Sequence record: PP925842.1 | DNA from: Escherichia phage KookSpook | Length of the DNA stretch: 64,000 bases | Direction: 5' to 3' (one strand) | Shown here: one piece after another, positions 9,754 to 10,668 of the stretch | How positions within the stretch are numbered: position 1 is the stretch's first letter | Layout: each line of letters begins with the position of its first letter | The notes under the pieces: model-generated | What the model was told of the DNA's origin: nothing | Databases searched by the model: none | The model's input: only the letters and a program-made list of their open reading frames with translations | Position numbers and translations under genes: made by a program

Positions 9754-9861
9754 ATTTTTAAGAACTCTCGTAAAAATTCTTAAAAATACAGACGATACCG
9801 GGAGAGTCATAAGTCTCACTCATTAAGTATTTCAAGACAAAATACAGTAACGTCTATTATC

Positions 9862-9971
9862 TTCCAGTTTAAGTCAAGGTGACTATACTTACTTATGCAT
9901 ATAAGGTCGCCATTTGGCAGATTACTCATAAGTCTTATAAAGTAAGTATTCCAGTTTAAGTCAAGGTGACT
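9862..9971. repeat. exact 23-bp direct repeat pair flanking a 10-bp inverted repeat
   Basis: TTCCAGTTTAAGTCAAGGTGACT at 9862-9884 and 9949-9971; inverted repeat ATACTTACTT / AAGTAAGTAT at 9885-9894 and 9940-9949. Confidence 0.8.
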
Positions 9972-10336
9972 TAGTGGTTATGTCCTGCGGTATACTGAGG
10001 ACTCGGTTAGGTTAGGGTCATGACTCCCTACCTTTTTGCTGCTACTCAACAGGAGTTATCGCGAATTACCTGTGCTATTGTGCACCATTAGTGGCATCTC
10101 TCATGCCATCATTTCCCACTTCATGGATAGCTTGAAAAACTACTCCGATATGGAGAAAGAACTTCACTATCCTAGAATACCCTCTAAAGTTCTTCTTTAT
10201 GTCTGGACATAGTTAAATCGTAATAAAACTATTCAACAGACTGGTTGATTAGTCTGGAATCAACTACCGCGTGGTTTAGGCAGTGCGCAACTAACCTAGG
10301 AAGCTTTTACGTTAAAAGCATCAGTTATCCAGCTCT

Positions 10337-10408
10337 TACCGATCACAGGATTCGAACCTGCATCTTCCACCAGTTACGGCTTGATAATACCGTTTATACT
10401 AGATCGGC
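10337..10408 (-). tRNA. tRNA-like element with unresolved anticodon arm
   Basis: rc T-arm ACAGGATTCGAACCTGC 10345-10361; acceptor 10338-10344 pairs with 10402-10408; no 5/7/5 anticodon hairpin. Confidence 0.35.
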
Positions 10409-10668
10409 AGTGTTACTACATAAGTGATTTCCACACCCCACCATCAATAAATTAAAGAAGAGTTTAGGGGAGAGGTTTCAGACGCCTCATTTTACACGTT
10501 CTAGCCACTAACCGGGATTGCCGCCCCCTGTGTACTAGTTTTCCAACTAACCCACCGACTCTATTCAATGCGCTCCGGTTGGGATTCTGCATTCAGCGTA
10601 ATCGGCTCGCTGTCCTCTAATTTAGGAATATATTATACAGAATTTATAAGCATTTAGCAAATGAATTT

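Follow-up and report, generated by a model that had tools for sequence, protein, structure and literature searches.

T5 is a classic, genetically tractable coliphage, and its tRNA region counters host defences that deplete tRNAs. The "stable" RNAs of this region have gone for decades without an assigned structure, family or function. One of them, rnaX, is annotated in the T5 reference genome as a misc_RNA, "RNAX, stable RNA with unknown functions" (NC_005859 40848–41566), and also in a T5 fragment (AY734508), the DT57-1/2 record and NC_047749; the existence of the gene, annotated in T5 for ~20 years, is therefore not new. Large "ornate" RNAs found near tRNA islands have been described in phages and prophages as GOLLD and ROOL (PMC12286853, PMC5737381). 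GOLLD has a conserved 3′ part and a variable 5′ part and sometimes holds internal tRNAs, and homo-oligomers of both RNAs assemble via kissing loops (PMC12286853). Here, we analysed a 64,000-nt stretch of Escherichia phage KookSpook (PP925842.1; hereafter the window), in which positions 9754–10668, read on the minus strand, are most probably the ortholog of T5 rnaX and, judged by comparative sequence analysis, the gene for a multi-domain folded RNA of ~870 nt. Neither annotation nor literature yielded a family-level description, structure or function for rnaX, and no primary paper was found in the literature on RNAX, T5 stable RNAs and T5 transcriptomes.

The window is T5-like, with 98% identity to one T5-like record and 88–96% identity to hundreds of Tequintavirus genomes. 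Its copy of the locus showed 88.7% identity over 826 nt to the annotated T5 rnaX and 94.4% over a 516-nt core to that of DT57-1/2. The position, strand and flanks are the same as in T5: promoter P16-17 (downstream of the T5.081 homologue), rnaX and tRNA-Arg follow one another leftward, and the promoter sequence is 100% identical to the T5 region annotated as P16-17. The window copy also shares an 87-nt insertion with T5 and differs in preceding another allele of tRNA-Arg(UCU). ARAGORN detected 19 leftward tRNA genes in the window, and rnaX lies within this cluster. A sequence-only reading had described the stretch as a repeat-rich non-coding island between two tRNA-like genes and offered a regulatory RNA as one of its explanations. 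The latter came close to the truth, as the stretch is an RNA gene with strong minus-strand covariation. The borders were misplaced: the tRNA-like element (10336–10409, minus) sits inside the locus, and a 144-aa gene ends with its stop codon at the right border, 10668/10669.

Evidence for an RNA fold came from three alignments, in which curated helices were compared with slid controls whose pairing partners were displaced by 1–3 columns. A1 covered the tRNA-like domain (34 distinct sequences, three genera), A2 covered window positions 10127–9948 (25 distinct sequences), and A5 was the core alignment with the sequences of Pectobacterium phage DU_PP_V and Proteus phage PM135 added. In A1, 94.9% of the cells of the curated helices were paired, against 30–40% in the slid controls, with 13 double-change pairs against 0–3; all 12 pairs of helix P1 were kept in all sequences, six of them with compensatory double changes. 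The corresponding values for A2 were 92.8% against 27–44% paired and 14 against 0–3 double-change pairs. In A5, 94.5% of cells were paired, and 22 of the 36 pairs showed a compensatory change (2–5 in the slid controls). Helix cells held G·U 192 times and A·C 25 times, and pairing reached 94.0% when the sequences were read as minus-strand RNA and 86.1% when read as plus-strand RNA. Because G·U is tolerated, A·C is avoided and pairing drops on the plus-strand reading, the comparison points to selection on a minus-strand RNA and not on a DNA cruciform or an opposite transcript. The single-sequence fold gave −242.5 kcal/mol for the minus strand (z = −2.4) versus −214.4 kcal/mol for the plus strand, and insertions and deletions fall at helix tips and boundaries. 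A global RNAalifold prediction and a brute-force column-pair scan were not used for long-range pairs, as clade-structured noise was dominant in both. The features of the locus are collected in Table 1.

Table 1 Features of the rnaX locus in the window, with coordinates from the first letter of the 64,000-nt stretch.
Feature	Position	Strand	Description and basis
Sigma-70 early promoter, TTGCTA-17-TATAAT	10632–10660	−	Promoter scan, 10/12 consensus positions; corresponds to T5 P16-17
rnaX transcript, ~870 nt	9754–10623	−	T5 and DT57-1/2 annotation, alignment
5′ domain, GC-richer segment	10444–10624	−	Terminal stem 10624–10613 / 10459–10448 enclosing a ~150-nt module (10612–10460)
Helix P0, GUGG 5′ strand	10438–10441	−	Predicted to pair with CCAC 10271–10274 (RNAalifold)
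Helix P1, 5′ strand	10415–10428	−	Pairs with 10320–10333, encloses the tRNA-like element
tRNA-like domain with acceptor, D and T arms	10337–10408	−	Rfam tRNA; ARAGORN "Ser(act)"
Helix P1, 3′ strand	10320–10333	−	Holds the conserved motif GAUAACUG
Hairpin H2, GCUUUUA-ACG-UAAAAGC	10303–10319	−	100% paired, 2–3 compensatory pairs
Hairpin H3 (10296–10279) and P0 3′ strand CCAC (10274–10271)	10271–10296	−	RNAalifold, alignment
Central variable region with hairpin GUUGAU/AUCAAC (10264–10244)	10121–10270	−	Sequence differs among genera
3′ domain	9959–10119	−	Closing helix GUGG (10119–10116) / CCAC (9977–9974) and hairpins Hb–Hg
Hairpins Hb, Hc, Hd of the 3′ domain	Hb 10108–10092; Hc 10087–10084 / 10007–10004; Hd 10073–10049	−	
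Palindromic hexamer UCGCGA, loop of Hd	10059–10064	−	Comparison of members
Hairpins He, Hf, Hg of the 3′ domain	He 10032–10010; Hf 10002–9982; Hg 9971–9959	−	
Loop GUCAUGAC at the tip of hairpin He	10017–10024	−	Invariant, self-complementary
Lineage-specific 87-nt insertion	9862–9948	−	64-nt hairpin-forming insert (9948–9885) and second 23-mer (9884–9862)
3′ tail with 11-bp AU-rich terminal hairpin (9787–9777 / 9764–9754)	9754–9861	−	Inverted repeat 100% complementary
tRNA-Arg(UCU), downstream, cotranscribed	9677–9753	−	ARAGORN; Rfam 54.3 bits

The rnaX core recurs in Tequinta-, Epseptima-, Sugarland-, Hongcheon- and Novosibviruses. It is followed by a downstream tRNA-Arg in all five genera, with the anticodon read as UCU in four of the five. 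A covariance model (R1) built from the core of P1, the tRNA-like domain and H2 gave a full-length match in DU_PP_V (Mccorquodalevirinae) with 86 bits (expectation value E = 5e-18), P1 being rewritten compensatorily there. Gene order is unchanged in that phage: a cell-wall hydrolase gene, a non-coding stretch, a "tRNA-OTHER", ~510 nt of non-coding sequence and tRNA-Arg(UCU). R1 also matched PM135 (Novosibvirus) with 61 bits (E = 3e-12) upstream of tRNA-Arg(UCU) in the same gene order; this phage keeps P1, H2 and the junction motifs GGGUGUCGAA, AAC.CU, AAGA and GAUAACUG. A search of 46 kb of Vibrio phage JSF10 with R1 gave ordinary tRNAs only. An Rfam scan of the region at E ≤ 10 returned tRNA and chance matches and no other family, and a second, independent pattern scan of IMG/VR gave no further relatives. 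The single match of a genome-collection scan was discarded as a chance match, as were five of 18 metagenome loci (four distinct sequences). A search for related loci with the neighbouring protein yielded only six loci, and the SPFH protein was unsuitable as an anchor for distant T5-like phages because T4-like phages also carry an SPFH protein.

The tRNA-like domain is closed by P0, which is invariant in close genera and covaries by eye beyond them, from GUGG/CCAC to ACGG/CCGU in DU_PP_V and AUGGG/CCCAU in PM135. P1 comprises 12 pairs (99.7–100% paired, with compensatory changes in 6–7). The element that it encloses scored 37.2 bits against the Rfam tRNA model RF00005, above the gathering threshold of 29. 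In place of the canonical 7-nt loop on a 5-bp anticodon stem, it has the 6-nt loop GUAACU (UUCACC in S147-type phages) on 3–4 bp. This 6-nt "anticodon" loop is typical of Tequinta- and Epseptimaviruses; the arm is a long two-stem hairpin with a tetraloop in Klebsiella phages and in one Tequintavirus (L058), and in PM135 a plain hairpin without an arm replaces the whole tRNA-like domain. The acceptor stem is likewise imperfect: position 1–72 is G·U in 19–20 sequences or G×A in 14, and position 5–68 (U×U) is unpaired in 24–25 of 33–34. No CCA is encoded, and both flanks of the element continue into P1. Because the anticodon arm is 6-nt or replaced, the acceptor pairs are defective and CCA is not encoded, the element does not qualify as a decoding tRNA. 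Its conserved features are the elbow (T-loop and D-loop GG) and the mounting on P1 via an internal loop, AACACU / AAGA. Downstream of P1 and H2, the H3 stretch is replaced in SP76 and Klebsiella phages by a longer insertion with a covarying closing stem.

In the central variable region, A-U, G-C and G·U alternate among relatives in the GUUGAU/AUCAAC hairpin. A pseudoknot CAGAC/GUCUG over this hairpin was rejected, since it would have overly short loops and S147-type phages do not conserve it. The 3′ domain that follows holds an invariant element: the loop of hairpin He (A-GUCAUGA; the window reads GUCAUGAC) was identical in every member examined from five genera, and the stem below it covaries. 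GUCAUGAC occurs once in the window and cannot pair within its own hairpin, and such an invariant self-complementary loop suggests RNA–RNA pairing. The loop of the neighbouring hairpin Hd carries a palindrome as well: most members share UCGCGA, T5 has CGCGCG, Klebsiella phages have CCGCGG, and L027 and DU_PP_V have lost it. By a rough estimate, two palindromic loops would arise by chance with a probability of several % to ~10% in an RNA with ~ten loops; the argument for self-pairing therefore rests on conservation, and kissing-loop self-association of RNAX is put forward as a hypothesis.

Some further observations concern hairpin He. On the minus strand (10010–10032) it reads GGG-AGUCAUGA-CCC, with three G-C pairs around a loop containing U-CAU-G-A. 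It resembles the anticodon stem-loop of the initiator tRNA-fMet (GGG-CUCAUAA-CCC), which may be a coincidence; the loop of He has 8 nt, not 7, and its stem is UGG/CCG in Klebsiella phages. In PM135 (L069, 12430–13700), the GUCAUGAC hairpin and the UCGCGA motif lie upstream of the P1 core, whereas they lie downstream of it in the other genera, and the domain order of the PM135 RNA thus appears to be rearranged. A possible open reading frame (ORF) is also present between the rnaX core and tRNA-Arg in this phage.

The GC-richer segment named by the sequence-only reading is a modest rise (0.47 at 10400–10599 against 0.32–0.42 on either side), and it is the optional 5′ domain of the RNA. The window, SE8-like phages, LmqsSP1 and Epseptimavirus SP76 have its ~150-nt module. 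T5, DT57-1/2, L003 and L006 lack it cleanly, and their stem ends in a small loop. The module covaries in SP76, DU_PP_V and PM135. Because its conserved islands and covarying stems recur in DU_PP_V and PM135, the 5′ domain is, on this comparison, ancestral, with a loss in the T5 lineage. A gene for a 165-aa HNH_3 endonuclease (Pfam E = 2.8e-12) replaces it in S147-type Epseptimaviruses (S147, L013 1668–2165; smaug; CitS1). HNH genes are also annotated inside the rnaX locus in JLBYU43 and 1Sgal2PP, which makes rnaX an apparent hot spot for the insertion of homing-endonuclease genes.

At the other end, the exact 23-bp direct repeat (9862–9884 and 9949–9971) and the perfect 10-bp inverted repeat (9885–9894 / 9940–9949) of the sequence-only reading were both confirmed. 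The 23-mer has two copies in 64 kb at ≤3 mismatches, with none expected by chance. A repeated motif had been reported too: CATAAGTCT is indeed present at 9808 and 9927, but two copies alone are not significant, being reached in 17 of 100 shuffles. These copies belong to a 28-nt repeat with 79% identity. In most relatives, among them DT57-1/2, SE8, LmqsSP1 and SP76, the 23-mer occurs once, without an insert; the 87-nt insertion is carried by the window, T5 and a few others. Among more than 500 related phage records, the 64-nt insert was found in nine, once per record, and four of the nine are T5 itself. Because the module is confined to these nine records and a single 23-mer is found elsewhere, the repeat and hairpin are best read as a rare insertion in a variable tail and not as an iteron array. 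Part of the insert is 79% identical to 9807–9834, i.e., 119 nt downstream, and because of this resemblance a local duplication is its likely source. The 3′ tail is kept in Tequintavirus, Klebsiella phages and DU_PP_V, and its terminal hairpin stands immediately before tRNA-Arg.

For transcription, host RNA polymerase would start at P16-17 (10660–10632) and run leftward through rnaX, tRNA-Arg(UCU) and then the gene of the SPFH protein. We infer that rnaX starts ~7–14 nt beyond the −10 box; in T5 the annotated 5′ end corresponds to window position 10618, and the 5′-terminal stem begins a few nucleotides from the expected start. The 3′ end abuts the 5′ end of tRNA-Arg, and a scan of the window found no terminator between the two. 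By established tRNA biology, an RNase P cut at the tRNA-Arg 5′ end would release RNAX and set its 3′ end, and the T5 annotation ends rnaX exactly at this predicted RNase P site. The 5′-terminal stem and the 3′-terminal hairpin may cap both ends of the RNA and so confer metabolic stability. A block of ~55 nt at the promoter upstream of rnaX (10618–10671, minus) recurs at 75–88% identity at several further early promoters within these genomes (L001–L008; e.g., T5 P-D/E 33) and is, by this similarity, a repeated promoter cassette.

RNAX is an accessory gene, because a viable T5 deletion, st0 (T5 33667–41891), removes the whole locus and most of it is missing from BF23. Just the 5′ third of rnaX is left in BF23, everything downstream including tRNA-Arg being gone, in agreement with PMC10644984. 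In BF23 (L012, OR083247, ~1500–1590; window ~10347), the tRNA-like element breaks off within its T-loop (GGTTCGAATCC) and continues as the 3′ end of a second tRNA (...CCTCGGGGAGCCACCA); the fusion is followed by the homing-endonuclease gene hegA. The deletion looks like a product of recombination between tRNA T-loops that removed the rest of rnaX, tRNA-Arg and its neighbours.

Four other explanations of the stretch were weighed against a folded RNA acting in trans. The sequence-only reading had seen iterated repeats around a hairpin as a protein-binding site array such as an origin of replication, i.e., the 23-mers would be iterons around a cruciform-forming hairpin. Both exact 23-mers and the 10-bp inverted repeat do exist and are not random, and no known T5 origin contradicts this account, as multiple internal T5 origins have been reported and never mapped to sequence (PMC3632103); we found no mapped T5 replication origin in the literature. 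However, "iterated" overstated the case, since there are fewer than three sites, and nearly all relatives of the same gene order lack the repeat-plus-insert module, an absence that the sequence-only reading itself had named as refuting its account. DnaA boxes are absent from the region, the conserved helices keep G·U and avoid A·C as an RNA would, and an essential origin would not be expected in a locus that T5 st0 lacks and BF23 has only in truncated form. An origin or DNA-level array is accordingly very improbable. Small protein-coding genes, which several GenBank records enter here as "hypothetical protein" features, are hardly credible at all. ORFs of 30–60 codons do exist and some records annotate coding sequences, but the sequence-only reading was right that no ORF is credible, with none longer than 60 aa on either strand, and none of credible length is conserved. 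In close Tequintavirus relatives (>90% identical), four of the six small ORFs are absent or disrupted by frameshifts or stop codons. A fifth, of 60 aa on the plus strand, is broken in two relatives only; it lies on the non-transcribed strand and crosses the tRNA-like element. One 30-codon frame (10075–10167, minus) was open in nine of nine compared sequences, yet its start codon is not conserved, and the substitutions in it coincide with the paired changes in the Hb stem. Small "hypothetical proteins" and "tRNA-OTHER", "tRNA-Sec", "tRNA-Ser" and "tRNA-Pro" features are annotated over rnaX in many T5-like GenBank records.

The stretch could also be a non-functional spacer, the leader of a tRNA-Arg precursor made of decayed tRNAs and homing-endonuclease debris and degraded after RNase P cleavage. 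Such a history would suit the mosaic locus with its many insertions and deletions, the imperfect acceptor stem of the tRNA-like element, the HNH endonuclease genes that insert here in relatives and the dispensability of the locus in the laboratory. It does not explain why compensatory changes maintain >90% of the pairs in ~15 helices, why islands and the 8-nt loop are invariant in five genera whose flanks have diverged beyond BLAST detection, or why insertions and deletions respect helix boundaries, and we consider it quite unlikely. Somewhat less unlikely, though still improbable, is a leader acting in cis on the processing, stability or timing of tRNA-Arg(UCU) and the SPFH mRNA. The core stands upstream of tRNA-Arg in all five genera with no terminator in between, and its tRNA-like domain could recruit RNase P; however, a conserved multi-domain structure of ~870 nt far exceeds the needs of known processing signals, annotated ORFs separate rnaX from tRNA-Arg in Klebsiella phages, and PM135 keeps the rest of the RNA without the tRNA-like domain.

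We tentatively propose that the locus works through its RNA and not as a DNA site, RNAX being a dispensable accessory molecule that serves in trans as a folded scaffold. Mimicry of a tRNA and protein binding are possible roles, and the conserved loop may let RNAX associate with itself or with other RNAs. Several points weigh against the proposal and against the folded RNA itself. The sequences fall into a handful of clades, and the counts of compensatory cells accordingly exceed the number of independent events. The fold is less certain for the central region and several long-range pairings than for the rest of the RNA. The designation "stable RNA" comes from the GenBank annotation, and the accumulation and ends of RNAX are predictions. 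RNase P could also act on the internal tRNA-like element, which may make the full-length RNA short-lived. Finally, the function that we propose is one that we infer.

The gene just upstream of the rnaX promoter encodes a 144-aa protein (10669–11103, minus; T5.081 homologue) assigned to PHROG 1460, "tRNA amidotransferase". Searches with the protein gave no Pfam match and no sequence match in the PDB. A single-sequence AlphaFold model was poor (predicted local distance difference test score, pLDDT, of 66); its best match was YqeY (8xje, 1ng6), over the full length and weak (probability 0.96, E = 0.05, template modelling score 0.31), so that a YqeY fold of the protein is only suggestive. If the match were true, a tRNA-binding-type protein would be encoded beside a tRNA-like RNA. 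We regard the modelled protein as a lead for a possible RNAX partner and nothing more. Klebsiella phages lack the 144-aa gene at that position.

On the other side of rnaX, the tRNA-Arg(UCU) allele of the window (9677–9753, minus) differs from that of T5 and most relatives and is found in only 18 phage records (e.g., phiR2-01, Gostya9 and NR01). Because similarity drops exactly at the gene boundary, both flanks are conserved and the allele is rare, the comparison suggests that the tRNA-Arg gene was swapped as a cassette. Elsewhere in the window, Rfam detected a tRNA at 5771–5845 (minus, 40.3 bits) that ARAGORN did not report and a tRNA-Sec-like match at 645–735 (minus, 37.6 bits, below the gathering score of 47); both are probably further T5-type tRNA or tRNA-like "stable RNA" genes. 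T5-like sequences nearly identical to the window are also deposited as "Campylobacter phage C13" and "Listeria phage LM 4-11-1 / 4-14-1" (MG065692, OR847704, OR848805), host labels that are probably wrong.

Compared with known systems, rnaX resembles iteron origins in that a non-coding stretch holds direct repeats close to an inverted repeat, and differs from them in that its repeats have two copies and are not conserved, DnaA boxes are absent and the locus is dispensable. Another likeness is that to the bacterial Y RNA YrlA, tmRNA and the MALAT1 mascRNA processing signal, in which acceptor, T and D arms with a T-loop/D-loop elbow are likewise found inside a longer structured RNA. By this analogy, the tRNA-like element is plausible as a handle for RNase P or a tRNA-binding protein. 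In contrast to these RNAs, the rnaX acceptor stem runs into P1 via the conserved internal loop, and PM135 has a plain hairpin instead of the domain. YrlA is arranged the other way round. ARAGORN found no tmRNA, and the Rfam scan of the region returned no Y RNA or tmRNA family.

The closest likeness is to GOLLD and ROOL, as rnaX is a large (hundreds to >800 nt) structured phage non-coding RNA with covariation support in or beside a tRNA cluster. Like GOLLD, it has a conserved part, a less conserved 5′ part and a tRNA-like element inside, and its self-complementary loop, known here from sequence, recalls the kissing loops of both families. The differences are that neither Rfam model matches rnaX at E ≤ 10, that the hosts of the gene are lytic T5-like phages of Enterobacterales, and that its tRNA-like element is built in on a conserved helix and is not a cargo tRNA in a linker. 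Because RNAX matches neither covariance model, we place it, by sequence and predicted fold, among RNAs of the GOLLD/ROOL kind but in neither family, with an architecture of its own. A more speculative and rather doubtful extension would make RNAX the third family of large "ornate" tRNA-island phage RNAs beside GOLLD and ROOL, belonging to T5-like phages of Enterobacterales and forming a folded RNA-only or RNA–protein particle. Here, GUCAUGAC would serve as the kissing loop, aided in many members by the second palindrome, and a tRNA-binding partner would grip the exchangeable tRNA-like tip of P1; this partner could be the neighbouring YqeY-like protein, RNase P, a host factor or a tRNA-targeting defence system. 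Many of the "hypothetical protein" and "tRNA-OTHER/Sec/Ser/Pro" annotations in the >500 T5-like genomes are probably mis-annotated rnaX. As a deeply conserved multi-domain RNA of up to ~870 nt, rnaX puts a GOLLD/ROOL-like "ornate" RNA into an E. coli model system in which deletion, complementation, structure probing and cryo-electron microscopy are straightforward.

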